A DNA stretch of 64,000 nt from a bacterium (lineage in GTDB: Bacteria > Patescibacteriota > UBA1384 > JAGGWG01): the NCBI GenBank assembly GCA_021157605.1, contig JAGGWG010000020.1:1110-65109 (forward strand), given 5' to 3'. Of this stretch, positions 317 to 19,613 are shown one piece after another. The translations under genes and the position numbers were made by a program. How positions within the stretch are numbered: the stretch's first letter is position 1; each line of letters opens with the position of its first letter. Under the pieces are notes generated by a model. That model saw nothing but the letters and a program-made list of their open reading frames with translations, was not told where the DNA came from and did no database searches.

Positions 317-2398
317 ATGACCAAACCAAAAAACGAGCAAAGCCTTGAACAAGATACTGAAACCCAAATCCCTGTTATGCCTGAAGAACAAACAGCCCCA
401 ACTCCTCCTCCAACTGAACCAAGCAGTGAAGGGATAGAAGGAGAAGCTGAAACAACAAAACAGGAAAAAGAAGGAGAAGAAATAACAAAAACAGAAACAG
501 CCACAGAGATAAATAAAACTGAAGAAGAAACACAAAAAGAATTGCCAACTCTTGAGGAAGAAAAGCTGTCTGCTAAAGTAGAGGTTAAACCCGGAGCTGA
601 ACTGCCGCCATTAAAAACAGGAAAATCATATTATTATAAAGACCAATCAGGCAACCCAAGAATAATCCATATTGCTGCCAGAGATGGTGATAAACTAACA
701 GTTAGGTTTGAAAAACTCACACCTACAGATAAAGGAAATTGGCAGCTTGCTCCTGACCCAGAAGACAATCAAGAATATCAGATAGACCATGAGGATCTTG
801 CCCCAAGATTAAGAGCAAGAATCAGCCAAGCCAAGCTAGATCCAGAAACACTAGAAAGAGAGTTTGAACAAAAAGAAAAGGAATACAATATAGACAGCAA
901 AAGAAAATCTCAGCCAAGAAGTAGTTTTTCCGTCTCTCCAATCCAAACTCTTTCTGCAGCTCAACAAAAAGGAGAACAAAGAAAGCAAGAGCCAAAACCC
1001 AGGAAACAAACAAAAGAAACAAAAAAGAAAGCAGAAAAAATTTACCAAAGAACTAGTACAGGCGAAAAAACTCAAGAGTCTACACGTGAAAAACAGAGCG
1101 AATTTCCAGCAACAGAAACAAGAGAAATTGAGTTAGCTGAATCTGACCCTCTCTTAAAATGGGCACAAGAAAAATTAGGTTCCAAAGATCTCAAAGTAGA
1201 ACTGATGCCAGCCAAAGAAAAAAAAGAAAGAATAGTATTAATCTCTGGAGGCATATATAAAGACAAACACAGCGACACTTACTATATTGTACAAACTGTC
1301 TACCCTTTTCCCTTTTCAACTTCAGAGTGTATATACGACAACGAGGAAAAGAAATGGAAAATAAGAAAATCACAAATACCAGCAGGTGATTTTCTAAAAT
1401 TAATAAGAAGCGGTGATATCGAAATAATTAAACCTGACAAAGGCGAATCACCAGCTCAAAAAGTTCCAAAAAAATTAAGAGAAAATCGATATTTTGCTAA
1501 TCATTATCTTTTAGCAATTGCCCAAAGAGCAGCCAGTAAAGAGTTTAAAGGAAGCAGAAACGAAGGCGAAAAGAGAGCAAAAGAACGCCGTCAAAAAATT
1601 GTCGCTTTGAAAAATATGCTAATAAATGGTATGCGGCAAGGATTTATATGGGAAAAGATGCAAACTGGAGAAAAGTTTATTTTAGAAAAATTAACTCCGA
1701 CAAGAGTAAAGTTAAGAAATGCTGAAACAGGAGAAGAGCTTTTTCTCTCTAATCCCACATTCTTCCTTATGAATTATGACCCAGTAGAAAGAAGGCAAGA
1801 AAAGAAAACTCAAGAAACCGCACCAGAAAAAAAACAAACTGAAGAAAAAATAGAGAAACAACCGCAAGAACAGCCAGAAGAAATAGAAAACCAACCCTCA
1901 GAAGAACAACCTCAAGAACAAACAGAAGAAACAGCACAAGAACAAGCCGAAACCAAACCTTCTGACAACACTCCTGAAACATTCCAGATTACAAAACAAC
2001 TACCAACAAAGCCTTATTTTAGAGAACCTCCCTTTGAATCTAATCCTGAAGAGCCATCTTCTAACCCATACACAAATATCTTTCTGGAAAACGCTCAAAA
2101 TTATATAGGAGAACAAATTCTTCCTGAACAAGCCAGAACTCTAAAAATAGGAGAGATTATCTTTAGGGGTGAGGTTAGAGATAATACTATAAGCGGCCGT
2201 TATGCTAAAATTTCAGGCATTACAGATGAAGGAATAAGATACCGACTAATAAATTCAGACAATAATTTTGGTCCTAAAGAGCCAAAAAAACTAAGCAGGA
2301 AAAAAGAAAGAGAAATTGCTTTTTCTGAAATTGCTTCTTCTGAAGAAGAGGCAGAAAACCAGAATAAATATCTCCTTTACAGGGTAAACTTGGGATAA
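317..2398 (+). CDS. Large hypothetical protein (693 aa) with Glu/Lys/Thr/Gln-rich low-complexity N- and C-terminal regions and an internal duplicated module (EKLTPT motif twice)
   Basis: Long ORF with ATG at 317. N-terminus is P/T/E-rich (PTPPPTEPSSEG); the central segments KSYYYKDQSGNPRIIHIAARDGDKLTVRFEKLTPTDKG and GEKFILEKLTPTRVKLRNAETGEELFL repeat the exact hexapeptide EKLTPT. No family recognised by eye. Confidence 0.7.
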   Translation: MTKPKNEQSLEQDTETQIPVMPEEQTAPTPPPTEPSSEGIEGEAETTKQEKEGEEITKTETATEINKTEEETQKELPTLEEEKLSAKVEVKPGAELPPLKTGKSYYYKDQSGNPRIIHIAARDGDKLTVRFEKLTPTDKGNWQLAPDPEDNQEYQIDHEDLAPRLRARISQAKLDPETLEREFEQKEKEYNIDSKRKSQPRSSFSVSPIQTLSAAQQKGEQRKQEPKPRKQTKETKKKAEKIYQRTSTGEKTQESTREKQSEFPATETREIELAESDPLLKWAQEKLGSKDLKVELMPAKEKKERIVLISGGIYKDKHSDTYYIVQTVYPFPFSTSECIYDNEEKKWKIRKSQIPAGDFLKLIRSGDIEIIKPDKGESPAQKVPKKLRENRYFANHYLLAIAQRAASKEFKGSRNEGEKRAKERRQKIVALKNMLINGMRQGFIWEKMQTGEKFILEKLTPTRVKLRNAETGEELFLSNPTFFLMNYDPVERRQEKKTQETAPEKKQTEEKIEKQPQEQPEEIENQPSEEQPQEQTEETAQEQAETKPSDNTPETFQITKQLPTKPYFREPPFESNPEEPSSNPYTNIFLENAQNYIGEQILPEQARTLKIGEIIFRGEVRDNTISGRYAKISGITDEGIRYRLINSDNNFGPKEPKKLSRKKEREIAFSEIASSEEEAENQNKYLLYRVNLG

Positions 2399-2477: not shown

Positions 2478-3461
2478 ATGTTAGTAAAGCCTAAAAAAGA
2501 GCTGGACAAACTTTTTCAGATTCTGCCGCAACGCCCCAAAGAGCAAAGAGAAAAAGATGTTCTCTTTGCCCGTTTTGGTATTAATGGCAAAGAACAAAGC
2601 CTACAAGCAATAGGCAACCGCTACCATATTACTCGCGAAAGAGTACGGCAAATTCAGAATCAGGGGATAAAAAACCTGCACAAAGCAGCTAAAAAAATAA
2701 AAATCTACAGACAAATAGCCAAAAAAGTAGAAAAACAAGCAGGAATTCTCTCTCTTGAAACCGCTTATAAAATCTTTTTGCCCAAAAACGCTACTAAAAA
2801 AAGCAAAACATTTCTTTTTCTTTTCTTGGTAGCCAACCCCCATCTGCGTTATTTTAAAGAAACCTCTAAAAACAATCCGTTTTTTACTTTTAAAATCAGC
2901 CCTAAAAAAATTAAAAAAATCTTTCAGAGAACGCTTTCTTTATTCAAAAAAGAAAAACAAGCCTTAAAAATAAGTTTAGCAGCTAAAAAATTAAAAATAG
3001 AGACAAAGCAACTAAAGGAAGTGGCCAACATTCTTAAAGAAGTAGATATTAGAGAGGGAAAGATTGGTTTAACAAGTTTCCCAGAAATCAATCCTAAAAC
3101 AACTGAAGCTAAAATTGACTTTATTTTTAAAAAGTACCAAAAACCTCTGCATTTTAGTAAAATAGCTTATCTAATCCGCAAAGAAAAGCTTTATTCCAAA
3201 AAACCAACTGAAGCTACAGTGCATAATGAGCTCATTAGACATAGGCATAAATATACATTAATAGGCAGGGGTATATATGCTTTAAAAGAGTGGGGATATA
3301 CTGAAGGAACAGTTAAAGACATAATTGCGCAAATCATTAAAAAATCCAATCGCAAACTCAGCCGGGAAGAAGTAATTGCTGAAGTCTTAAAACAACGCCA
3401 AGTAAAAAGAAACACTATCCTTTTAAATTTAGCTGGCTTTAGAAAAGAACTCAAAGCTTAA
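2478..3461 (+). CDS. Sigma-70 region 4 (4.1+4.2 HTH) domain protein with ~240-aa Lys-rich C-terminal extension; no region 2
   Basis: REKDVLFARFGINGKEQSLQAIGNRYHITRERVRQIQNQGIKNLHK matches the sigma-70 region 4 consensus (RE.EVL..RFGL...TLEEVG..F.VTRERIRQIE..AL.KLR). It sits at the extreme N-terminus, and the remaining 240 aa are K-rich with no sigma regions 2 or 3. Confidence 0.7.
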   Translation: MLVKPKKELDKLFQILPQRPKEQREKDVLFARFGINGKEQSLQAIGNRYHITRERVRQIQNQGIKNLHKAAKKIKIYRQIAKKVEKQAGILSLETAYKIFLPKNATKKSKTFLFLFLVANPHLRYFKETSKNNPFFTFKISPKKIKKIFQRTLSLFKKEKQALKISLAAKKLKIETKQLKEVANILKEVDIREGKIGLTSFPEINPKTTEAKIDFIFKKYQKPLHFSKIAYLIRKEKLYSKKPTEATVHNELIRHRHKYTLIGRGIYALKEWGYTEGTVKDIIAQIIKKSNRKLSREEVIAEVLKQRQVKRNTILLNLAGFRKELKA

Positions 3462-3493
3462 AAACCATCTTTTTGCTTTTCTCCTCTTTGCTT

Positions 3494-3521
3494 TTGCGTA
3501 TTTTCCTGATATCTTTATAAG
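3494..3521 (+). promoter_or_regulatory. Candidate promoter (TTGCGT -35, 16-nt spacer, TATAAG -10) ending 5 nt before the ATG of the ATPase gene, which could give a leaderless or very short-leader mRNA
   Basis: Hexamers read by eye in the 64-bp gap; no Shine-Dalgarno motif between the -10 and the ATG at 3526. Confidence 0.2.
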
Positions 3522-3525
3522 AAAT

Positions 3526-6234
3526 ATGGATACAGCTTCAAGCTTTATTTTATTGTTAACTCTAACAGGAGTTTTTTTAGGATTATACTACTATCGCCAA
3601 AAGCAGAAACTAGCCTACACCAAAGAACAGTTAGATAAAGTGGAGTGGAGTCTTCTTTCTTTAGCAGTTCCCAAAGAAAATGAAAAAGGACCAGAAGCAG
3701 CTGAAAATATGTTTGCCGCTTTACACGGCATCTTTCAGGAAAACCTACCTGAAAATCTCCAATCCCAAATCAGCTTTGAAATAGTCTCTAAACCTCAAGC
3801 TATAAACTTCTATGTTGCTTGCCCTAAGTATTTAGTTGATTTTATTGAAAGCCAAGTTTATGCCCAATATCCCAGTGTAGAAATCAGAAAAGTAGAGGAT
3901 TACATCCGTTTTGCTCCACAAACGCACTTTGCCGTAGGGGAACTCGCTACTACCAAAGAAGATATTCTACCGATCAAAACCTTTCCCAACTTTGAAGTAG
4001 ATCCTTTGTCTTCACTAACTAGTATTCTCTCTAAAATCTCAGGAGACGAACAGATTTGGGTGCAGATTGTGGTACGACCCATAGCTGATGAATGGCAAAA
4101 AAAGAGCCTAAACTGGACCCAAAGCGTAAAGAATACAGGCCGCACTCCGGGATTAGCTTTAAGCACCAGCAGTGTTTTAAAAACATTAATCAATTTTCTT
4201 AAAGAACTGATACAAACAGCCAAAGGAGGCGAAACAGGTGGCGGTGAAGGAGGGGAAGTGCAAATTCCCGGCCCTTTGCAGGCAGCCATAGAAGGAGCAG
4301 AACAAAAAAGCACCAAACTGGGATATAAAACAAAAATTAGGTTAGTAGTTTTTGCTAATGACCCGCAGACAGCTCAGGGGAAACTGCAAAGTGCAGTTGG
4401 CTCTTTTAAGCAATTCAATACTCTTAATGCTAATGGTTTTGCCTTGGGTAAGGTAGTTATAGATGACCCACAGGCTTTAAATCAATACCAAAAAAGATAT
4501 TTTCTTAATGACGGTTTTATCCTTAATGTAGAAGAACTAGCTTCTCTCTTTCATTTACCCAATGTCTCTGTAGAAACTCCGAAAATAGCCTGGTCTGGAG
4601 CTAAAAAAGGCGAACCGCCAAAAAATTTGCCTATTAAAAAGAAAAAAATCAACAAAGACTTAACTATTTTTGCTGCTACTGATTTTAGAGGCTCAAAAAA
4701 AGAGTTTGGCATTTTAAGAGAAGACCGCAGACACCATATGTACTTTATTGGTAAAACCGGGGTCGGCAAATCAACGGTTTTACACAATATGGCTATTTCT
4801 GACATTCAAAAAGGGGAAGGGTTAGCGGTTATTGATCCCCACGGTGAATTAGTAGAATCTCTGCTAGATTTTATCCCTAAAGAAAGAATAAAAGATGTTG
4901 TTTATTTTAATCCTGCTGATCAAGACTATCCTATTGCCTTTAATCTTTTAGAAAATGTAAAACCTGAATTAAAAACCATTGTTGCTTCTGGACTAGTAGG
5001 GATATTTAAGAAAATTTGGGCTGAATCTTGGGGACCGAGATTAGAGTATATACTCAGAAACGATATTTTAGCTCTTTTAGACTATCCTGATGCCACCCTT
5101 TTGGGAGTAACCAGAATTTTAGTAGATAAAGATTTTCGCCAAGAGGTAATAAAACACATCAAAGACCCGGTAATAAAAGAATTTTGGATATCTGAGTTTG
5201 AACAATACGACCAACGTTTCCGCACTGAAGCTATTGCTCCCATACAAAATAAAGTAGGTCAATTCTTGGCTTCACCCTTAATCCGCAATATTGTGGGGCA
5301 AAAAAGATCAACTTTGGATATAGGCGAAATCATGAACTCACGAAAAATACTTTTAATAAACCTATCCAAGGGCAAAATAGGGGAAGATGCCTCTGGCCTT
5401 TTGGGGGCAATGTTAATTACTAAGATTCAGATTGCCGCTTTAGAACGGGCTTCTATTAAACCGGAAAAAAGAAAAGATTTCTATCTCTACGTAGATGAAT
5501 TCCAAAACTTTGCTACTGAGGCTTTTGCCACTATCCTTTCTGAGGCAAGAAAGTACCGCCTAAACCTCATTATGGCTAACCAGTATATTGCTCAAATGGA
5601 AGAGCAGGTAAGAGATTCTGTTTTTGGCAATGTCGGAACCTTGATATCTTTTAGAGTAGGGCCATCAGATGCTCCTTACTTAGCCAAAGAGTTTATGCCC
5701 ACTTTTGAAGAAACAGATCTTATAAATTTGGATAAATTCCATATCTACCTAAAGATGTCTATTAAAGGCATTACTTCGCCGCCTTTCTCAGCTGAAACTT
5801 TGCCTCCTTTTGACGGCAAAGAGGGACTGGCAAAAGAAGTAATTGAACACAGCCGCAAAATCTATGCCCAACCTTTAGTCAAAGTAAAAAAAGAAATAGA
5901 AGATCAAGCACAAAGCAAAATCATTGAGGCTTTTGAGGATTTGGTAAAACCCAAAAAAATAAAAGTAGGGGATAAAACCTTTCTTGTACGCAAAGGCACA
6001 ACTGGCCATTACTGGTATTTTCCTTTAAACAATTCAAAAAGGGAAAAGCCAAATAAAAAGAAAGACAACCCCACAACTCAAAAAGAATCTTCGCCAGAAC
6101 CAAAAAAGAAAAAAAGAGTTCTTAAAAAACTGATTCAAGAAGCACTAAAAGAAAAAGAAGAACCTAAAAAAGAATCAAAAGACAATCTTAATAATAGCAC
6201 ACTAAAAAAAGAAAAAGGGGAGATAGAGCTTTAA
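3526..6234 (+). CDS. Membrane-anchored P-loop NTPase, type IV secretion coupling-protein-like (VirD4/TraG/TraD family, FtsK-HerA superfamily), 902 aa
   Basis: N-terminal single TM (SSFILLLTLTGVFLGLYYY followed by RQKQK, so N-out/C-in). Walker A YFIGKTGVGKST is followed by a VIDPHGEL motif (compare the DPKGE motif of T4CPs), and the Walker B region is LYVDEFQNF. About 370 aa of unassigned domain with a Gly-rich linker (GGETGGGEGGE) separate the TM from the P-loop, and the C-terminus is a K/E-rich tail. Family assignment is by motif only. Confidence 0.55.
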   Translation: MDTASSFILLLTLTGVFLGLYYYRQKQKLAYTKEQLDKVEWSLLSLAVPKENEKGPEAAENMFAALHGIFQENLPENLQSQISFEIVSKPQAINFYVACPKYLVDFIESQVYAQYPSVEIRKVEDYIRFAPQTHFAVGELATTKEDILPIKTFPNFEVDPLSSLTSILSKISGDEQIWVQIVVRPIADEWQKKSLNWTQSVKNTGRTPGLALSTSSVLKTLINFLKELIQTAKGGETGGGEGGEVQIPGPLQAAIEGAEQKSTKLGYKTKIRLVVFANDPQTAQGKLQSAVGSFKQFNTLNANGFALGKVVIDDPQALNQYQKRYFLNDGFILNVEELASLFHLPNVSVETPKIAWSGAKKGEPPKNLPIKKKKINKDLTIFAATDFRGSKKEFGILREDRRHHMYFIGKTGVGKSTVLHNMAISDIQKGEGLAVIDPHGELVESLLDFIPKERIKDVVYFNPADQDYPIAFNLLENVKPELKTIVASGLVGIFKKIWAESWGPRLEYILRNDILALLDYPDATLLGVTRILVDKDFRQEVIKHIKDPVIKEFWISEFEQYDQRFRTEAIAPIQNKVGQFLASPLIRNIVGQKRSTLDIGEIMNSRKILLINLSKGKIGEDASGLLGAMLITKIQIAALERASIKPEKRKDFYLYVDEFQNFATEAFATILSEARKYRLNLIMANQYIAQMEEQVRDSVFGNVGTLISFRVGPSDAPYLAKEFMPTFEETDLINLDKFHIYLKMSIKGITSPPFSAETLPPFDGKEGLAKEVIEHSRKIYAQPLVKVKKEIEDQAQSKIIEAFEDLVKPKKIKVGDKTFLVRKGTTGHYWYFPLNNSKREKPNKKKDNPTTQKESSPEPKKKKRVLKKLIQEALKEKEEPKKESKDNLNNSTLKKEKGEIEL

Positions 6235-12546: not shown

Positions 12547-13158
12547 CTAATCGTCGCTTTTGTCTATTGCTTTTCGCCCTTTTAAAGCTTCTCTTAAGGT
12601 GGTTTCATCTGTGTATTCTAAATCTGCTCCAATAGGGAGGCCGGCAGCCAAACGGGAAATTTTTATATTTGGGCTAAGGTTTTTAATCTCTTTGTTAACA
12701 TACATCGCTGTAGCCTCACCCTCAAGAGATGAATCAAAAGCCAAAATTACTTCTTTGGGCTTTTCTTTTTTAATCCTCTGTAAAAGCTCTTTTGTGTGTA
12801 ATTCCTCCTCGTCAGCTAAATATGAAGCAACTAAGCCTCCCAAAACAAAATAAACACCCCTAAACCCCGCTCTCTCTAAAGGCTGAATATGTAGGGGGGT
12901 TTCTACTACAGCAATAATATCTTGGCGACGTTTTTTATCCCGGCAAATCAGACATTCACCCCCATCAGAAAGGTTAAAACAGCGCGGACACTCTTTTAGC
13001 TCTCCAACACCTTTAAGCGCAGCAATAAACTCCTCCAGTTCAGAGGGGTCCATTTTAAAAATAAAGTTAGCCAGCCGTTCAGCTGTTTTCTCCCCAATCT
13101 GGGGCAGTTTTTTCAGTTTAGATATTAAAAAGCGGAATTTTTTAGGATAAAAAGCCAT
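12547..13158 (-). CDS. recR: Recombination protein RecR
   Basis: C4 zinc finger CPRCFNLSDGGECLICRD followed by a Toprim domain. Confidence 0.85.
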   Translation of the reverse strand: MAFYPKKFRFLISKLKKLPQIGEKTAERLANFIFKMDPSELEEFIAALKGVGELKECPRCFNLSDGGECLICRDKKRRQDIIAVVETPLHIQPLERAGFRGVYFVLGGLVASYLADEEELHTKELLQRIKKEKPKEVILAFDSSLEGEATAMYVNKEIKNLSPNIKISRLAAGLPIGADLEYTDETTLREALKGRKAIDKSDD

Positions 13159-13163
13159 AGTCT

Positions 13164-15200
13164 TTATTTAATCTTGTCTTTCTTGTTCTTTTTAGATTCA
13201 TAAAAAGGCAAAATCAAACGGCATTTAGGATAGTTGGCACAACCCAAAAAATAACCAAATCTGCTTTTTCGCAAAACAAGCTTTCCGCCGCATTCCGGAC
13301 ACTTAGGATGCTCTCGGCGGAGTTCTTTTAATCTCTTTTTTTCTTTAGCGCTTAACTCCTGCTCTAAATTGTCTTGATTATTTAAAGACTCTTTATAATT
13401 ACACTTCGGGAAATTGCGGCAACTAATGAATTTGCCAAAACGACCAAATTTAACCACTAATTCACCACCACATTTAGGACATTTTCTTTTTAAAACCTCA
13501 ACTTCAGTTTCCTTTGTCTTTTTAATCTGCGCATCCTTTTCTTTCAGCAGTTTTTCTAAAGGACCATAAAACTCTGCTACTACCTTGCTCCACTCTCTCT
13601 TGCCAAGAGCAATCTCGTCCAGCTCTTTCTCCATTTCAGCAGTAAATTGATAATCAACAAGATGAGGAAAATGTTTGAGCAAAAATTCTGTTACTTTTTC
13701 ACCCAAATCAGTAGGAAAAAGATAGCGTTTTTTCCGTTCAATATAGTGGCGCTTGTAAAGAATATCTATAATCGGCGCATAGGTAGAAGGCCGACCAATG
13801 CCTAAATCCTTGAGCTTTTTCACTAAGCTGGCTTCAGTATAGCGAGCTTTAGGTTTAGTTTGAAAAGCCAAAACCTGCAAATCCAGGGGCTTGAGTTTTT
13901 CTCCCTCTGTTAAATTAGGAATAATAGAGGTCGACATCCAATAAGGATAAATTTTTAAAAAACTTTCAAAAACCTGCTTTAGGCCTTTGGCTAAAAACAC
14001 ATAATCCTTATCTGCCTGAGCTAAAAGATAAATAGTATTTTCTTTAAACTCTGCTGGCTTCATCTGTGAAGCAACTGTCCGCCAAAAAATAAGCTCATAA
14101 AGACGCAACTGATCTTTTTCTAAAAAAGGTTTAACCTTGTCCGGAGAAAGCCCGATATCAGTCGGTCTGATAGCTTCATGTGCTTCCTGCGCATTTTTAG
14201 GAGCTTTATACTTTTTAATTGATTTAGACAAAAATTTAGAGCCAAACTTATTTTGCACAAAAGCTCTAATTTTCTCTACTGCTTCTTGAGCTAAAGTGGG
14301 AGAATCAGTACGCATATAAGTAATAAGACCAATCCTTTTTCCTGAAATCTCTACACCCTCATAAAGTTGTTGAGCTAAAAACATCGTCTTTTTGGCAGTA
14401 AAACCCAAACGTTGAAAAGCATCCTGCTGTAAAGTAGCGGTAATAAAAGGTGCTGGCGGAGAAACAAACTTGCTGCGGGAAATGATTTTTTGTACCTGAA
14501 ACTCTCTATTCTTAAGCTTTTCTTTTATCTTTTCCACTTCTTTTTTGTTCTTAAAATAAAACTTATCCAAAACTTTTTTACCTATCTGGTGCAAGCGAGC
14601 GCTAAATTGAGAACCTTTTTTAAAATCTGCCTGCAGGACAAAATAATCTTTTGGCTGAAACTCTTTAATCTCTTTTTCCCTTTCAACCAGCAAACGCAAA
14701 GCTGCAGACTGGACACGACCAGCAGACAAACCCCTAAGAATCTTGCGCCATAAAAAAGGAGAGAGCTTATAACCAAAAAGACGATCAATAATGCGGCGAG
14801 CTTTCTGCGCTCCCACTAAATCTTCTAAAATCTGGCGCGGCTTTTTTAATGACTCTTTTATTGCCCTTGGAGTAATCTCATGAAAGGTAATACGCTTAGG
14901 ATCTTTAAGTTTCAAAATTTCCTGCAAATGCCAAGCAATAGCTTCCCCTTCTCTGTCAAAATCAGTAGCCAAATAAACCTCTGCGTCCTTAACTGCTTTT
15001 CTAAGCTGACTGATAACTGCCTTTTTCTGAGGCAAAATCCTATACTGAGGAGCAAAATTCTTTTTTATCTCTACTCCAAGCTTAGAACGGGGCAAATCTC
15101 TGATATGCCCATAAGAGGAAAGGACAGAAAAATCCTTTAAAAAACGGGAGATAGTCCGGGCTTTTGCTGGAGACTCAACAATAATAACTTTTTGTTTCAT
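13164..15200 (-). CDS. topA: DNA topoisomerase I
   Basis: N-terminus MKQKVIIVESPAKARTISRFL (Toprim) and C-terminal Cys4 zinc ribbons (CPKCGGEL, CPECGGKL); 678 aa. Confidence 0.9.
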   Translation of the reverse strand: MKQKVIIVESPAKARTISRFLKDFSVLSSYGHIRDLPRSKLGVEIKKNFAPQYRILPQKKAVISQLRKAVKDAEVYLATDFDREGEAIAWHLQEILKLKDPKRITFHEITPRAIKESLKKPRQILEDLVGAQKARRIIDRLFGYKLSPFLWRKILRGLSAGRVQSAALRLLVEREKEIKEFQPKDYFVLQADFKKGSQFSARLHQIGKKVLDKFYFKNKKEVEKIKEKLKNREFQVQKIISRSKFVSPPAPFITATLQQDAFQRLGFTAKKTMFLAQQLYEGVEISGKRIGLITYMRTDSPTLAQEAVEKIRAFVQNKFGSKFLSKSIKKYKAPKNAQEAHEAIRPTDIGLSPDKVKPFLEKDQLRLYELIFWRTVASQMKPAEFKENTIYLLAQADKDYVFLAKGLKQVFESFLKIYPYWMSTSIIPNLTEGEKLKPLDLQVLAFQTKPKARYTEASLVKKLKDLGIGRPSTYAPIIDILYKRHYIERKKRYLFPTDLGEKVTEFLLKHFPHLVDYQFTAEMEKELDEIALGKREWSKVVAEFYGPLEKLLKEKDAQIKKTKETEVEVLKRKCPKCGGELVVKFGRFGKFISCRNFPKCNYKESLNNQDNLEQELSAKEKKRLKELRREHPKCPECGGKLVLRKSRFGYFLGCANYPKCRLILPFYESKKNKKDKIK

Positions 15201-16219
15201 AAAGCTTGATAAAATCCTGAGCCAAGATTTTTTATTTTACCTTTGACCTCTAACTCACTCAGTTTAGCCAAGGTTTTTGAAGCACTCAAGCCAAGATGTT
15301 TTTGAACCTCCTCTATATATCTGGGCTGAGACAAAAACAAAAGCAGAGAATCTGACTTTTTGTTCTTTGTTTTGGGCCAAAAACTAATAAACTCCTCCTC
15401 AATATCTTTAGCCTCAAAAACAGGTTTGGCACCTTGCCTCATTAAAGTAAAGCAACCCTTGCTTGTCAAGCGGAATATATTAGCCGGAACCGCCATAACC
15501 TCCCTGCCATAACGAGCCGCATAACTGGCAGTACTCAATGACCCAGATTTTTCTCCAGCCTCAACTACTACTGTAGCTAAGCTTAAACCGGCAATAATAC
15601 GATTGCGGGCTAAAAAATAGTATCTCTCTGGCTTAAATCGCGGCGGATACTCACTAATGACCGCTCCGCCGCTTCTTACTATTTTTTCCGCCAGCCCCTG
15701 GTTAAGAGAAGGATAAAGAGCTAAAAAACCAGAACCCAAAACCGCCACTGTTTTATGGTCTGACTCTAAAGCTGCTTGATGAGCAAAGCTGTCAATACCC
15801 ACAGCTAAGCCAGAAACAATCACCCAAGGACAGACAAGATTAAAAATTAAATTAAAAACAGCTTTCTTGCCGTACAAAGTCGCCCGTCTTGCTCCTACAA
15901 AAGACAAAGAACGCTGACTTAAACTTTTACTTTTGCCCCAAACAAAAAGATAAACCGGGGGATCAGCAATCTCTTTTAAAATTTGGGGGTAATTTTTTTG
16001 GTCTAGACGCAAAAGATTAAACTCTTTTGCTTCTTTAAACTCTTTTTCTAAAGCCGAGAGATTTAAACTTTCTAAACGTTTATAAAAACTGCGGCTCACA
16101 CCCTTGAGAGGTCTGGGATTTTTAAGATAGCGAGAATTCAGAGCTTGGGCAGACTTAAGAGCTAAAAAATCCTTTTGGGAAGGCAAAGCATTAGCTAAAC
16201 AAAAATCAACAAAACGCAT
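15197..16219 (-). CDS. dprA: DNA processing protein DprA (Smf)
   Basis: VSGLAVGIDSFAHQAALE Rossmann-fold motif; the conserved dprA-topA gene pair. Confidence 0.8.
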   Translation of the reverse strand: MRFVDFCLANALPSQKDFLALKSAQALNSRYLKNPRPLKGVSRSFYKRLESLNLSALEKEFKEAKEFNLLRLDQKNYPQILKEIADPPVYLFVWGKSKSLSQRSLSFVGARRATLYGKKAVFNLIFNLVCPWVIVSGLAVGIDSFAHQAALESDHKTVAVLGSGFLALYPSLNQGLAEKIVRSGGAVISEYPPRFKPERYYFLARNRIIAGLSLATVVVEAGEKSGSLSTASYAARYGREVMAVPANIFRLTSKGCFTLMRQGAKPVFEAKDIEEEFISFWPKTKNKKSDSLLLFLSQPRYIEEVQKHLGLSASKTLAKLSELEVKGKIKNLGSGFYQAL

Positions 16220-16264
16220 TAATTAAAAGATAGTGGCAAAATTTTTTAGAATCAACAAAAAATT

Positions 16265-18517
16265 TTAATCTTTTTGTTTTATTTTCTCCCAAGCTTGAGA
16301 AACCATTTCACTAAAAAGATAAGCCCCTACTTGGTTTATGATTCCATGCTGGCGTTTGCCAAATATCTCTCCCTCTCCCCTTTTCTCCAAATCCCTCAAA
16401 GAGATTTTATAAAACGCTTGCGGCTCTTTTATCAGCGAGAGAAAATCTACTAACCTTTCATAAGAACTATCGGGCAATTTTTTAGGCACAGCCACCCAAA
16501 AATAAGAAACTTGGCCAGCACGACCAATACGCCCTCGCAACTGATAAAGATCTCCTATACCCAACCTGGAGCCATACCAGAGAATCATTGTCTGCGCTCC
16601 GGAAATATCTAAACCATGCTCTACAATAGCAGTAGCCACCAACACATCTACTTTTCGCAAAGAAAAACGGCTTAAAGCCTGAGCCAGCTTATCCTTAGGC
16701 ATCCGGCCGTGAGCCACAGCCACCTCAAACCCCATGAATTTAAGTTTTGAAGATATGTTTAAAACATCTTTAATTAAAGGAGCCACAAAATAAACGCCTT
16801 TTTTCTTCTTGGCTGCCCTCTTAATTACTTTTTCAATCCGGGACCAATCACTTTGGGAAAGAACCCTGTCTTTGATTTTTCTTTCAACCCACCCTTCTAA
16901 AACAGACATTGTTTTGATTTTAGAAAGAGAAAGATAAAGGGTGCGAGGTATGGGGGTAGCGGTTAAGGAAAGAACACTTAGGGAAGGATTTTTAAGACGC
17001 CACTTTTCTTTTTGTTTCACACCAAAACGCTGTTCCTCATCAATAACTGCCAAACCTAAATTTTCAGCTTCTAAAGAAGCGAACAAAAGCTTGTGGGTGC
17101 CAATAAGCAAATCAATCTTTCCTTCATTAAACTTCTTTATTATTTCCTGATTCTTCTTTTCTTTTTGCAGACTGCAAACCAAGGCGACCCTAACGGGCAG
17201 GTTTTGCAAACGCTCTTTAAAAACCAAATACTGCTGTTGAGCCAAAATAGTAGTGGGAGCTAAAAAAACAACCTGCTTATCAGGTAAAAATAAAGAAGCT
17301 ACCCGCAACGCCACCTCAGTTTTGCCTGAACCTGCTGGACCGATCAAAAGATGGTCAAAAGGCCTCTTCTGAAATAACAAGTTTTGAATTTCCTGCAAAG
17401 CCTTTTTTTGGGCAGGGGTCAAACTAAAAGGACAGGTTTTTTCCAGATGCTTTAAAAAAAATTGTCCAAATCTTTTGATCTCTATTTTCTGCCTTTTTAA
17501 ACTTTTATAAAGGGCAAAAAGCTTTTTAGCCAGTTTTTCTGCTTCTGCCTCTGCCAATATTTTTGTTTTTTCCCACCCACTTTTGCCAAGAGAGGAAAGA
17601 TGAGGCTTAAGACCAATATATTTAGTCAGCCGTCTTTTTTCTTTTAAGGGAACATACAAATAAGCATTATTTTGAAAACGCAAGTGATAGTAAAATTCTC
17701 TTCTCTCCGCTTGAGGCAGGACTTGCTCATCTAAACTCAAAGGCAGTTGTTTAGGACCAATACCCTCTAGTTTAGCAATTCCGTGATCAATATGGACTAC
17801 ATAATCGCCAACAGAAAAATCAGTTATGCTCTTAAAACGACGAATTTTAATCTTTTTTTGAAAATCTTTGTCAGTAAAAAAATGCCAGCGGCCCAAACTA
17901 AAACCAGAAAAATCCAAAGGAGGTAAAAAATATATTTTTGCCTTTTTAGCCAAAGCCTTCAAAGCTAATTCATAACGGGAAAAGAGAACCACTCGTTGTT
18001 GAGAAGAATGCGCCAAACGGATTACTTCTTTGAAAGTTGAATAGGAATGGGGCTTACATAAAATTAAAGATTCTGAATGTTTAAGTTCAGAAAACTTTAT
18101 GGGATAAACAAAAAGGGAATCAACTATCTCAAGAGATTTTTGGCTGCGTTGGTCAAAAAAATAGATCCTCTCAAGAGTCTGGTCAAAAAACTCTAAACGC
18201 ACGGGATACAAAGAAACATTATCCCAAAAATCAACCACCTCTCCTCTAAAAGAAAATTGCCCTTTTTCATAAACTAGGGGGGATTCAACAAAACCCAAAG
18301 CAGAAAATTTCTGGCGCAAAACTCTCTGGGAATAATCTTTGCCTTGCCTCAGCCAAATACCCTCCCCTCTCTCTTTGGCCGATATGTGTCGCACAATATA
18401 TAGAAAAAGCTCTGGAGCTTGAGGAACCTCTCCTTTTTTTAAAAAAGAGAGAGTGCGCTGAACTTCGGGTTCAGCAGCGAACCCTGTTATTATTTTTTCT
18501 AACGGCCGCATTTCCAT
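16265..18517 (-). CDS. mfd: Transcription-repair coupling factor Mfd, short form lacking the N-terminal UvrB-homology/UvrA-binding module
   Basis: CarD/RID-like segment FSVGDYVVHIDHGIAKLEGI; SF2 helicase motifs GPAGSGKTEVA, DEEQRFGV and LSLTATPIPRTL; TRCF C-terminal domain. Only 750 aa, and rplK begins 48 bp upstream, so there is no room for a longer N-terminus. Confidence 0.8.
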   Translation of the reverse strand: MEMRPLEKIITGFAAEPEVQRTLSFLKKGEVPQAPELFLYIVRHISAKERGEGIWLRQGKDYSQRVLRQKFSALGFVESPLVYEKGQFSFRGEVVDFWDNVSLYPVRLEFFDQTLERIYFFDQRSQKSLEIVDSLFVYPIKFSELKHSESLILCKPHSYSTFKEVIRLAHSSQQRVVLFSRYELALKALAKKAKIYFLPPLDFSGFSLGRWHFFTDKDFQKKIKIRRFKSITDFSVGDYVVHIDHGIAKLEGIGPKQLPLSLDEQVLPQAERREFYYHLRFQNNAYLYVPLKEKRRLTKYIGLKPHLSSLGKSGWEKTKILAEAEAEKLAKKLFALYKSLKRQKIEIKRFGQFFLKHLEKTCPFSLTPAQKKALQEIQNLLFQKRPFDHLLIGPAGSGKTEVALRVASLFLPDKQVVFLAPTTILAQQQYLVFKERLQNLPVRVALVCSLQKEKKNQEIIKKFNEGKIDLLIGTHKLLFASLEAENLGLAVIDEEQRFGVKQKEKWRLKNPSLSVLSLTATPIPRTLYLSLSKIKTMSVLEGWVERKIKDRVLSQSDWSRIEKVIKRAAKKKKGVYFVAPLIKDVLNISSKLKFMGFEVAVAHGRMPKDKLAQALSRFSLRKVDVLVATAIVEHGLDISGAQTMILWYGSRLGIGDLYQLRGRIGRAGQVSYFWVAVPKKLPDSSYERLVDFLSLIKEPQAFYKISLRDLEKRGEGEIFGKRQHGIINQVGAYLFSEMVSQAWEKIKQKD

Positions 18518-18564
18518 GTAGCTTTTATGTGGAGTTCAAAATATTATCTCCTCTTGTTTACACC

Positions 18565-18993
18565 TTATATCTCTTCTGTCTCTATACCCATACTTTTAGC
18601 TGTACCTACCACTATCTTCATCGCTGCTTCTAAATCATTAGTATTAAGATCAGGCATCTTTATTTTAGCTATTTCCTCAATCTGCTGGCGAGTTAATCTG
18701 CCTACTTTTTTCTTATTAGGTTCACCCGAACCTTTGGCAATATTAAGAGTTTTTTTAATTAATTCTGAAACAGGCGGTGTCTTTACTACCAAATCAAATG
18801 TTCTGTCTTTATAAACCACTACCTCAGCTGTCACCTTCATACCTTTGTTTTCTTGAGTAAGCTGATTAAACTTATTGCAAAACTCAACAATATTCACTCC
18901 GTACTGGCCCAAAGCCGGACCCAAAGGAGGTGCAGGAGTAGCTTCGCCTGCTTTAGCCTGAATTTTAAACTTTACTTCTATCTCTTTTGCCAT
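18565..18993 (-). CDS. rplK: 50S ribosomal protein L11
   Basis: [24 protein letters not shown] matches the L11 N-terminal domain. Confidence 0.9.
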
Positions 18994-19007
18994 AACTTAT
19001 TATTATT

Positions 19008-19613
19008 TTAGATTTTGCGCGCTTGGTTAAACTCCACCTCAACAGGAGTCTCCCGACCAAACATATTTACCAAAACCTTAAGTTTACCTTTGGATTCATC
19101 TACTTCCTCTACTACCCCTTCAAAATCCTTAAATGTACCCCGAGTAATGCGGACATGTTCTCCTGCCTTAAAATCAGCCGCATAAACAGGCTCCTGTCTT
19201 TTAATCCGACCAAAAATTTCATTTAGTTCTTTGGGGTTGATTGGCGAGGGACGTGTGCCAAAACCTAAAAACCCAGTCACGCCGGGGGTGTTACGCACCA
19301 CATACCAAGAAGCATTATCCACTATCATCTCTACCAAAACATAACCCGGGTAAATATGCTTTTTTATTACTTTTTTCTCCCCTCCTTTAAGCTCTATCTG
19401 TTTCTCCTTAGGAGCAATGACTTGAAAAATTTTGTCTTCCATACCGAAAGATTTGACCCGTTGTTTAAGCTGCTTCACCACCCGATCCTCATAACCAGAA
19501 TTGGCATGAATCACATACCACCGCGCCTTAGGATGGGAAGAAAGCTTAAATCCTTGTTTGCGCTTAGAGTCTATCTTTTTTTTCTTGCTTTTTTTCTTTT
19601 CTGCTTTTGCCAT
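19008..19613 (-). CDS. nusG: Transcription termination/antitermination factor NusG (with Lys-rich N-terminal extension)
   Basis: NGN domain (WYVIHANSGYEDRV) and C-terminal KOW; the conserved secE-nusG-rplK order. Confidence 0.9.
   Translation of the reverse strand: MAKAEKKKSKKKKIDSKRKQGFKLSSHPKARWYVIHANSGYEDRVVKQLKQRVKSFGMEDKIFQVIAPKEKQIELKGGEKKVIKKHIYPGYVLVEMIVDNASWYVVRNTPGVTGFLGFGTRPSPINPKELNEIFGRIKRQEPVYAADFKAGEHVRITRGTFKDFEGVVEEVDESKGKLKVLVNMFGRETPVEVEFNQARKI

Follow-up and report, generated by a model that had tools for sequence, protein, structure and literature searches.

A sigma region 4 protein with four predicted winged helices, encoded across Patescibacteria and often beside a type IV secretion-type ATPase gene

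The stretch of DNA analyzed here, called the window throughout, is 64,000 nucleotides (nt) of contig JAGGWG010000020.1 (assembly GCA_021157605.1), from a bacterium of the Patescibacteriota. Near its start, on the plus strand, lies a gene for a 327-amino-acid (aa) protein that we call sigma4-4WH, in reference to a sigma-70 region 4 domain (sigma4) that is followed by four winged helices (WH1 to WH4), and the next gene encodes a membrane-anchored ATPase of the kind found in type IV secretion systems (T4SS). The protein is almost certainly a non-sigma member of a Patescibacteria-wide family that joins sigma4 to four winged helices, the last two of which are of the HARE-HTH type. The reading frame is clean, opening at 2478, the first ATG after a stop, and running for 327 codons to a stop codon that ends at 3461. 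Its product, which is identical to the NCBI hypothetical protein J7K05_02535, contains 17.7% lysine and has a pI of 10.4 and a net charge of +49. The gene and its parts are as follows, with positions counted from the first letter of the window.

2478 to 3461, plus strand: sigma4-4WH gene, an open reading frame (ORF) of 327 aa with full-length homologues and an AlphaFold2 model of pLDDT 96.3 and pTM 0.85.
2478 to 2693, plus strand: sigma-70 region 4 domain, residues 1-72, with the helices of the helix-turn-helix (HTH) at 42-49 and 53-71.
2700 to 2897, plus strand: WH1, residues 75-140 (helix 75-86, strand 90-92, helix 93-100, helix 107-118, strand 124-126, strand 135-137), variable.
2901 to 3089, plus strand: WH2, residues 142-204, from modelled secondary structure, with a conserved GL..WPEINPK motif at its end.
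3090 to 3305, plus strand: WH3, HARE-HTH type, residues 205-276, with Pfam HARE-HTH at 217-254.
3306 to 3458, plus strand: WH4, a second HARE-HTH-like winged helix, residues 277-327, its wing hairpin missing in the clade of the window protein.

An earlier note made from the letters of the window had assigned residues ~25-70 to sigma region 4.1/4.2, and this assignment is borne out, with Pfam Sigma70_r4 matching residues 23-67 (nt 2544-2678) at an E value of 5.2e-12 and at 45.5 bits against a curated cut-off of 24.1. Every NCBIfam match of the protein falls at the C-terminal, region-4 end of the RpoD, RpoS and SigA models, and the best scores of the whole-protein sigma models (RpoD, RpoS, RpoH and extracytoplasmic function) are 23-38 bits, under their cut-offs of 43-800. 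When a profile of 120 family members was compared with the PDB, sigma-A/RpoD region-4 chains were matched at an E value of 6e-18, with the TRERxRQIE recognition helix aligned residue for residue. The predicted region 4 superposes on sigma-A region 4, including that of the Thermus complex with -35 DNA (1ku7), with a root-mean-square deviation of 1.7-2.2 A and 32-42% identity (Foldseek). Residues R53, E54, R55, R57 and Q58 are invariant in 120 diverse members, R32, L42 and G46 are invariant or nearly so, and the RFG motif of region 4.1 is conserved across the family. In the tool-made alignment the invariant positions correspond to R584, E585, R586, R588 and Q589 of the Escherichia coli protein, which we take to be its contacts with the -35 element. 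That the region 4 of the window protein is genuine, complete and of primary-sigma (group-1) type is firmly supported.

Neither Pfam nor NCBIfam finds a sigma region 2 or 3 in the protein, and its homologues are likewise without region 2. A phmmer scan of stop-to-stop segments in all six frames of the window, with a full sigma-70 sequence as the query, matched the region-4 segment only and detected no region 2 or 3. The view of the earlier note that this is no conventional sigma factor therefore stands, and regions 2 and 3 were not found upstream in another frame, where a 693-aa ORF fills the DNA. Compared with a primary sigma factor (RpoD, SigA or RpoS), sigma4-4WH shares the full 4.1 + 4.2 fold and the TRERxRQI recognition helix, but it is without regions 1.2, 2 and 3, carries region 4 at its N-terminal rather than its C-terminal end, and continues into four winged helices. 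Because regions 1.2, 2 and 3 are absent, the protein cannot bind a -10 element or open DNA.

The remaining 240 aa, which had been described as lysine-rich and unassigned, are indeed lysine-rich, but they can be assigned to four winged helices. AlphaFold2, run with a 120-sequence alignment, models the whole chain as ordered, in five rigidly packed domains. HARE-HTH (PF05066) matches residues 217-254 at 23.6 bits, slightly short of its 25.9 cut-off, and reaches 35-54 bits in homologues, in which a second HARE-HTH stretch is often present on WH4. Conservation extends well beyond region 4. At WH2 and its end, G197, L198 and P206 are invariant or nearly so; in WH3 the recognition-helix residues H249 and N250 and a GRGxYAL..WG wing are invariant; and in WH4 the third-helix residues R307, T313 and N317 are conserved, as is L318. 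The median charge in the family is +6 for region 4, +5 for WH3 and +6 for WH4, with WH1 neutral to acidic at -1, and the net charge of the window protein is extreme against a family median of +17. The clade of the window protein (relatives P0002-P0013) has a five-residue insertion (PQRPKEQ) before region 4.1 and lacks the last beta-hairpin wing of WH4, so that the chain ends ~12 residues before the rest of the family. A search with the whole chain found no solved full-length relative. Its best fold matches were tandem winged-helix arrays, namely the C-terminal WH1-4 of SelB and UFL1/DDRGK1 (8b9x, 1lva, 2uwm), and these are weak (E values of 3e-3 to 0.3, TM 0.19-0.25), come without sequence similarity and amount to architectural likeness only; these arrays bind RNA or act in ufmylation.

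The HARE-HTH domain raises the question of the delta subunit (RpoE) of RNA polymerase (RNAP), under which several relatives have been named by JGI. The delta subunit of Firmicutes is ~170 aa long and has a single HARE-HTH domain, followed by an acidic tail whose net charge is -47 (PMC7749165), and its HARE-HTH N-terminal domain docks on RNAP between the beta-prime shelf and jaw (PMC7749165; PMC11156646). The winged helix is common to both proteins. In sigma4-4WH, however, it is not N-terminal, and it scores just under the cut-off in the window protein and 35-54 bits in homologues; two HARE-type and two other winged helices are present together with sigma4, the domains are basic, and the family was found not in Firmicutes but in the candidate phyla radiation (CPR). 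That sigma4-4WH is the patescibacterial orthologue of delta is very unlikely, given its charge of +49 and its three further winged helices and sigma4 domain, and we rejected this identity on the absence of the acidic tail.

A free region 4 might instead serve as a sigma decoy, also suggested by the earlier note, or as an anti-sigma-like competitor, occupying the flap-tip helix of the beta subunit or the proteins that target region 4, and so displacing or mimicking that of the primary sigma factor. The fold is near-identical to sigma-A region 4, the RFG motif is conserved, and sigma4 touches the flap-tip helix in the holoenzyme (PMC11156646). However, a decoy would have no need for every DNA-contact residue to stay invariant, and no synteny with RNAP genes is seen. 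In the predicted structure region 4 is packed rigidly on WH1, and DPAM joins residues 6-155 of SEML1_0294, a counterpart described below, into one domain (PMC10633639), an arrangement that may bury the flap-binding face. Specific support for a decoy was not found, and we consider it highly improbable.

A homologue search in 5.8 billion proteins returned more than 4,700 matches, of which the best 120 were examined. These are all 317-368 aa long and nearly all carry the Pfam pair Sigma70_r4 + HARE-HTH, with 99-100% of the query covered at 52-76% identity and 90-97% covered at about 36-40% identity. When 1.84 billion cluster representatives were searched with a profile, 970 clusters were matched at E values of 1e-30 or below; those listed align over their full length, at 317-397 aa, with region 4 at residues 20-70. 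The window protein has all the invariant columns of the family and the same layout of region 4, WH1, WH2 and two HARE-type winged helices. All full-length matches in GTDB genomes belong to Patescibacteria, and outside this division the matches extend over no more than region 4 of ordinary sigma factors. The family is found in Saccharibacteria, including cultured Nanosynbacter, in Parcubacteria/Paceibacteria, and in Peregrini-, Peri-, Doudna-, Kaiser-, Niyogi- and Buchananbacteria; it is also present in a bin that bears the label 'Gammaproteobacteria' and has CPR-like neighbours. Confinement of the family to CPR in these searches is firmly supported.

Such uniformity bears on whether the gene could be an ordinary sigma factor gene that has been frameshifted or has decayed, or could encode one of the two subunits of a split sigma. 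All that speaks for either is that region 4 is present and that automatic annotation has produced names such as 'RpoS'. Set against this are ~970 homologue clusters of one architecture, no region 2 or 3 in any frame of 64 kb, and an upstream ORF that is unrelated. Since the family is uniformly full-length and found only in Patescibacteria, and the six-frame scan detected no region 2 or 3, a frameshift is ruled out. A split sigma would call for a region-2-only partner, and no second protein with region 2 is present in Table S2 for Southlakia epibionticum or in the window. The probability of a broken or split sigma is accordingly close to nil.

Full-text searches found no paper describing the family. 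It is already catalogued, under generic or wrong names, and the automatic names conflict: 'RNA polymerase sigma factor RpoS' (PROKKA) and, at JGI, 'DNA-directed RNA polymerase delta subunit', 'uncharacterized membrane protein' and 'predicted Zn-ribbon and HTH transcriptional regulator'. The domains themselves are known already; their architecture and the link to the ATPase are undescribed in searchable literature.

The downstream gene and its parts are as follows.

3462 to 3525, no strand: spacer of 64 bp between the two genes, in which a scan found no terminator-like site.
3526 to 6234, plus strand: gene for the membrane-anchored T4SS-type ATPase, 902 aa, identified from Pfam, DUF8128 and synteny.
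3541 to 3597, plus strand: N-terminal hydrophobic, putatively transmembrane helix, residues ~6-24, reading SFILLLTLTGVFLGLYYY and then basic residues.
3643 to 4635, plus strand: DUF8128 domain with a fold like that of the VirB4 N-terminal domain, residues ~40-370 (AlphaFold2 pLDDT 87, pTM 0.81).
4726 to 5673, plus strand: P-loop motor like that of type IV coupling proteins (T4CP), residues 401-716, Pfam TrwB_AAD_bind, with Walker A at nt 4750-4773 (GKTGVGKS, residues 409-416) and Walker B at ~nt 5479-5499 (residues ~652-658, with YLYVDE at ~653-658).

The ATPase is a hybrid, made up of a membrane helix, a VirB4-like N-domain and a TrwB/VirD4-like motor. Its N-terminus is modelled by AlphaFold2 as one long helix (residues 2-38). 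The N-terminal 370 residues carry a precomputed Pfam assignment to DUF8128, for which a sequence-profile search found no relative in the PDB or in a local copy of Pfam. The only significant fold matches of the DUF8128 model in the PDB are to TrwK/VirB4 of R388 (E ~1e-5, probability 1.0, TMq ~0.4). The motor scores 36 bits with TrwB_AAD_bind, whose cut-off is 20.5, and 25.2 bits with TraG-D_C, whose cut-off is 22, and its closest solved sequences are the coupling proteins TrwB (1e9r) and DotL (6sz9). The description of this neighbour as a VirD4-like ATPase is thus correct as to its T4SS type, but the VirB4-like N-domain sets it apart from a plain VirD4. With type IV coupling proteins (VirD4, TrwB, TraD) it shares the TrwB/TraD-type P-loop motor, and with the VirB4 ATPase, by fold, the N-terminal domain; unlike a coupling protein, it is not beside relaxase or T4SS channel genes, its neighbours being SecDF, tRNA-modification enzymes, CysRS, RecR, TopA and DprA. 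In a survey of 2,918 Patescibacteria genomes, 5,713 'T4CP' homologues were counted, of which only 148 are near virB4, and relaxases were almost absent; its authors suggest that these homologues were possibly exapted for other functions (PMC12102498). Thousands of such orphan 'T4CP homologues' may be of the same hybrid type as the one described here.

Genes were called and clustered in 64 loci, 63 of which were scored for the downstream gene, the contig of the remaining one (L044) ending too early. At 48 of these 63 loci, the sigma4-4WH gene is followed directly, on its own strand, by a homologue of the window ATPase gene, at a median gap of 44 bp, and these loci span Saccharibacteria, Parcubacteria/Paceibacteria, Peregrinibacteria and Doudna-, Kaiser-, Niyogi- and Buchananbacteria. 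At four further loci the ATPase gene is at most four genes away. The reverse look-up gave the same picture, with a sigma4-HARE gene directly upstream of the DUF8128 gene in 3/3 cases (proteins picked for their long contigs). The earlier note had asked whether homologues always neighbour a VirD4-like ATPase; they do so at most loci, though not at all. The window itself conforms: 64 bp separate the sigma4-4WH gene from the start of the ATPase gene, both lie on the plus strand, and co-transcription of the pair is probable. The partner takes one of three forms: a single gene of ~900 aa, a split pair of an N-part (~430 aa) and a motor (~550-630 aa), or the N-part alone, followed by MltG.

The remaining neighbours are lineage-specific housekeeping genes, including SecDF, TopA/DprA, LeuRS, AlaRS and FtsQ/MurG/FtsW, and the wider context in the window is likewise chromosomal, with SecDF, an RluA-like protein, Dus, CysRS, RecR, TopA, DprA, Mfd, NusG, FtsW and IleRS. 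SecDF lies near the sigma4-4WH gene in 17 of the 64 loci, in either orientation. The sole length exception in the family, P0186 (659 aa), has SecF (SecD_SecF_C, Sec_GG) in frame with a full sigma4-4WH protein; it probably arose by read-through, SecD-SecF-sigma4-4WH being a frequent gene order, and could be a real fusion. TopA and DprA are directly upstream of the sigma4-4WH gene in Saccharibacteria. In the window they are ~10 kb away on the other strand, within a cluster of RecR, topoisomerase I, DprA, Mfd (TRCF) and NusG at 12547-19613 (minus strand). Neither an anti-phage defence module nor a phage origin fits this locus. PADLOC gave only domain-level matches (the region-4 end of MzaA; the P-loop of HerA/mad8) and no full-length match for either protein, and the spread of the family across Patescibacteria and its essentiality also weigh against defence; a BFVD fold search returned only region-4 or generic HTH matches, and the surrounding genes are chromosomal housekeeping genes.

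The DNA upstream of the gene contains the following feature.

2399 to 2477, no strand: AT-rich spacer of 79 bp between the stop of ORF 317-2398 and the ATG at 2478, the presumed promoter region.

A consensus scan of this spacer matched no sigma-70-type promoter, and promoter and terminator scans around the sigma4-4WH and ATPase genes were uninformative as to a DNA target. The minus strand has one perfect TTGACA at 2460-2465, which is 13 bp upstream of the gene's start and may be chance or an operator. Across the 64-kb window TTGACA is not enriched (23 observed, 27 expected) and no sites are clustered, so that the copy at 2460-2465 may be no more than chance. The scan also flagged a terminator-like hairpin (10 pairs, then a T-run) at 2543-2569 on the plus strand, within the region 4.1 coding sequence, which is most likely a chance match. 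The product of ORF 317-2398 (plus strand) is acidic, of low complexity and rich in Glu, Lys, Gln and Thr, with a pI of 5.6, and has no match in Pfam, NCBIfam or PADLOC. Related to it are two genes in tandem that, in the closest relative (L001, 5394-7935), lie upstream of the sigma4-4WH gene and sit in a run of unannotated genes starting with a second DUF8128/DUF87 ATPase.

Functional data exist for one species. In Southlakia epibionticum ML1, SEML1_0294 is annotated as 'RpoS' and is 349 aa long, with PF04545 at 27-72 and PF05066 at 225-283 (PMC10633639 Tables S1/S2). Its domain parse gives one sigma-like and three winged domains, TopA is encoded two genes upstream, and the gene for a 921-aa TrwB-type protein adjoins it downstream (PMC10633639). 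We regard SEML1_0294 as the counterpart on the strength of the same Pfam pair, a similar length and the same neighbours as the Saccharibacteria loci, rather than by alignment; the window protein is of a different clade, is more basic and is without the last wing. SEML1_0294 belongs to a core, Patescibacteria-enriched family and was essential at all three time points of a transposon sequencing screen, its insertions falling from 24 in the input DNA to 1, 1 and 2 after selection (PMC10633639); the gene is not discussed in the main text of that paper. A paralogous ATPase, SEML1_0142, flagged as a Patescibacteria-enriched core family, is essential, as are the T4SS cluster and the canonical FtsK that this species possesses (PMC10633639). 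In Table S2 sigma region 2 occurs in RpoD only and HARE-HTH in SEML1_0294 only (PMC10633639), so that by this table S. epibionticum has a single sigma factor and lacks a separate delta subunit.

Gene order that is kept across so deep a radiation usually marks proteins that act together, and for this reason we tentatively favor, as a possibility, that sigma4-4WH is a partner of DUF8128/T4CP-type membrane ATPases in the recognition or loading of double-stranded DNA. It is common for motors of the FtsK and TrwB types to depend on partners with winged-helix or ribbon-helix-helix folds. Analogies are offered by the FtsK gamma winged helix and by TraM-TraD and TrwA-TrwB, the likeness being a DNA-binding HTH or winged-helix unit that is genetically tied to a membrane ATPase of the FtsK/TrwB superfamily. 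Sigma4-4WH differs from those recognition modules in being a separate polypeptide with a sigma4 head, in having as its neighbor an ATPase with a VirB4-like N-domain, and in that no relaxase or oriT context is seen. Sigma4 is known to recognise the -35 element in its double-stranded form (PMC11156646). In the proposed mechanism the sigma4 HTH would read a short double-stranded element resembling the -35 hexamer (TTGACA-type), as its invariant TRERxRQ residues suggest, while the two basic HARE-HTH domains, judging from their charge and conservation, would hold the flanking DNA. The rigid array of winged helices would then link the bound DNA to the membrane-anchored ATPase encoded directly downstream, and the protein would serve the ATPase as its recognition or loading partner, a role suggested only by the conservation of the operon. 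The domain identities, the architecture common to the family, the synteny and the essentiality of the counterpart in one species are shown, and we infer DNA binding, the target sequence and the physical link to the ATPase.

Several observations weigh against such a partnership. Nine loci are without an ATPase gene in the sequence covered. Two of these (L015, L055) are on contigs that end soon after the gene, and the other seven are Saccharibacteria (L021, L023, L037, L039, L043, L046, L052), in which neither an ATPase gene nor a pseudogene remnant was found within 10 kb and the sigma4-4WH gene is kept in a TopA ... FtsQ/MurG/FtsW context. In two Peribacteria loci (L007, L054) the ATPase gene is 5-8 kb off rather than adjacent. 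A whole clade, with the order LeuRS, sigma4-4WH, DUF8128, MltG, MnmA, has the DUF8128 protein with no motor domain nearby, and since DUF8128 alone adjoins sigma4-4WH there, the DUF8128 domain, and not the motor, would seem to be the constant partner. (The loci are L025, L026, L027, L032, L051, L053, L056, L060, L064 and L069, with the genes in question at ~10-13 kb, downstream of the match, and their lone DUF8128 protein terminates at a conserved GEPPxNLP motif.) We know of no case in which the VirB4 N-domain, whose fold DUF8128 resembles, serves as a docking site for DNA adaptors. No relaxase or other T4SS gene was recognised in the annotated parts of the window, and a factor that binds promoters would need just such a reading head, unchanged from the one in the primary sigma. 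Finally, the ATPase gene adjacent to SEML1_0294, SEML1_0293, is non-essential, with 82 insertions in the input and 87-120 afterwards (PMC10633639). Because the counterpart is essential and this ATPase dispensable, sigma4-4WH cannot be an accessory of that ATPase alone, and for the model to hold there would have to be cross-talk with SEML1_0142, the paralogue, or the protein would need a second function; the pattern of essentiality would fit if it also served SEML1_0142 or the essential T4SS. The proposal of the earlier note that this is a DNA-recognition subunit for the adjacent ATPase therefore survives as a lead, on the strength of the synteny, but not in the form of a partner for that ATPase only.

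The main rival is that sigma4-4WH is a CPR-specific general transcription factor or RNAP accessory, in which sigma4 binds -35 elements in trans and HARE-HTH docks on RNAP as that of delta does. Initiation would then be modulated genome-wide and the operon link to the ATPase would be secondary. The residues that read the -35 element are invariant and are the ones found in primary sigma factors, the HARE-HTH domain has the fold of the RNAP-binding N-terminal domain of delta (PMC7749165; PMC11156646), the S. epibionticum counterpart is essential where the neighbouring ATPase is not, and this Patescibacteria-enriched core family occurs there alongside one sigma factor and no separate delta. A transcription factor would be a simpler account than an ATPase partner of why the counterpart is essential and why the -35 contacts have not changed. 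However, it leaves unexplained a gene order with a membrane ATPase that is radiation-wide and holds in both directions, its HARE-HTH domains are basic and there is no acidic tail, the feature on which the function of delta is defined, and TTGACA is neither enriched nor clustered in the window. We judge this account somewhat unlikely, and the -35-binding regulator proposed in the earlier note is a live rival.

A narrower alternative is a dedicated local repressor or activator of its own operon that controls only the downstream ATPase gene. Regulator genes often adjoin their targets, the spacer here is short and the orientation conserved, and the single TTGACA upstream of the start codon on the opposite strand could be its site. 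However, the counterpart is essential even though the ATPase downstream of it is not, the gene persists in seven genomes that have no ATPase within 10 kb, and the DNA-reading residues are invariant over ~1,000 diverged clusters, whereas a local operator would be expected to drift. Such a regulator is improbable.

A bolder possibility is that sigma4-4WH is the missing DNA-handling component of the relaxase-less T4SS-type machinery of Patescibacteria, and would read a promoter-like hexamer and pass double-stranded DNA to the orphan VirB4/T4CP-hybrid ATPases at the membrane. We think this unlikely. If true, the DNA-handling reading would make these essential machines devices for the acquisition or transfer of DNA (nucleotides), and would explain why organisms that have only one sigma factor conserve, and cannot do without, a reading head derived from sigma.

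Patescibacteria have been described as a large and diverse bacterial division in which it is unknown how genes are regulated and what the essential genes for type IV secretion do (PMC11665869, PMC12102498). In sigma4-4WH the -35-reading head of a primary sigma is reused outside a sigma factor, in a gene order with an orphan T4SS-type ATPase, and the family is essential in the only species screened, a fact that stands unremarked in a supplementary table (PMC10633639). The analysis also corrects the recurring mis-annotations 'RpoS', 'RNAP delta subunit' and plain 'T4CP'. Either of the two main readings, a lineage-specific essential transcription factor or a DNA adaptor for T4SS-type motors, is testable in the genetically tractable Saccharibacteria, and the DNA-adaptor reading bears on how these bacteria, which are without nucleotide synthesis, obtain DNA.

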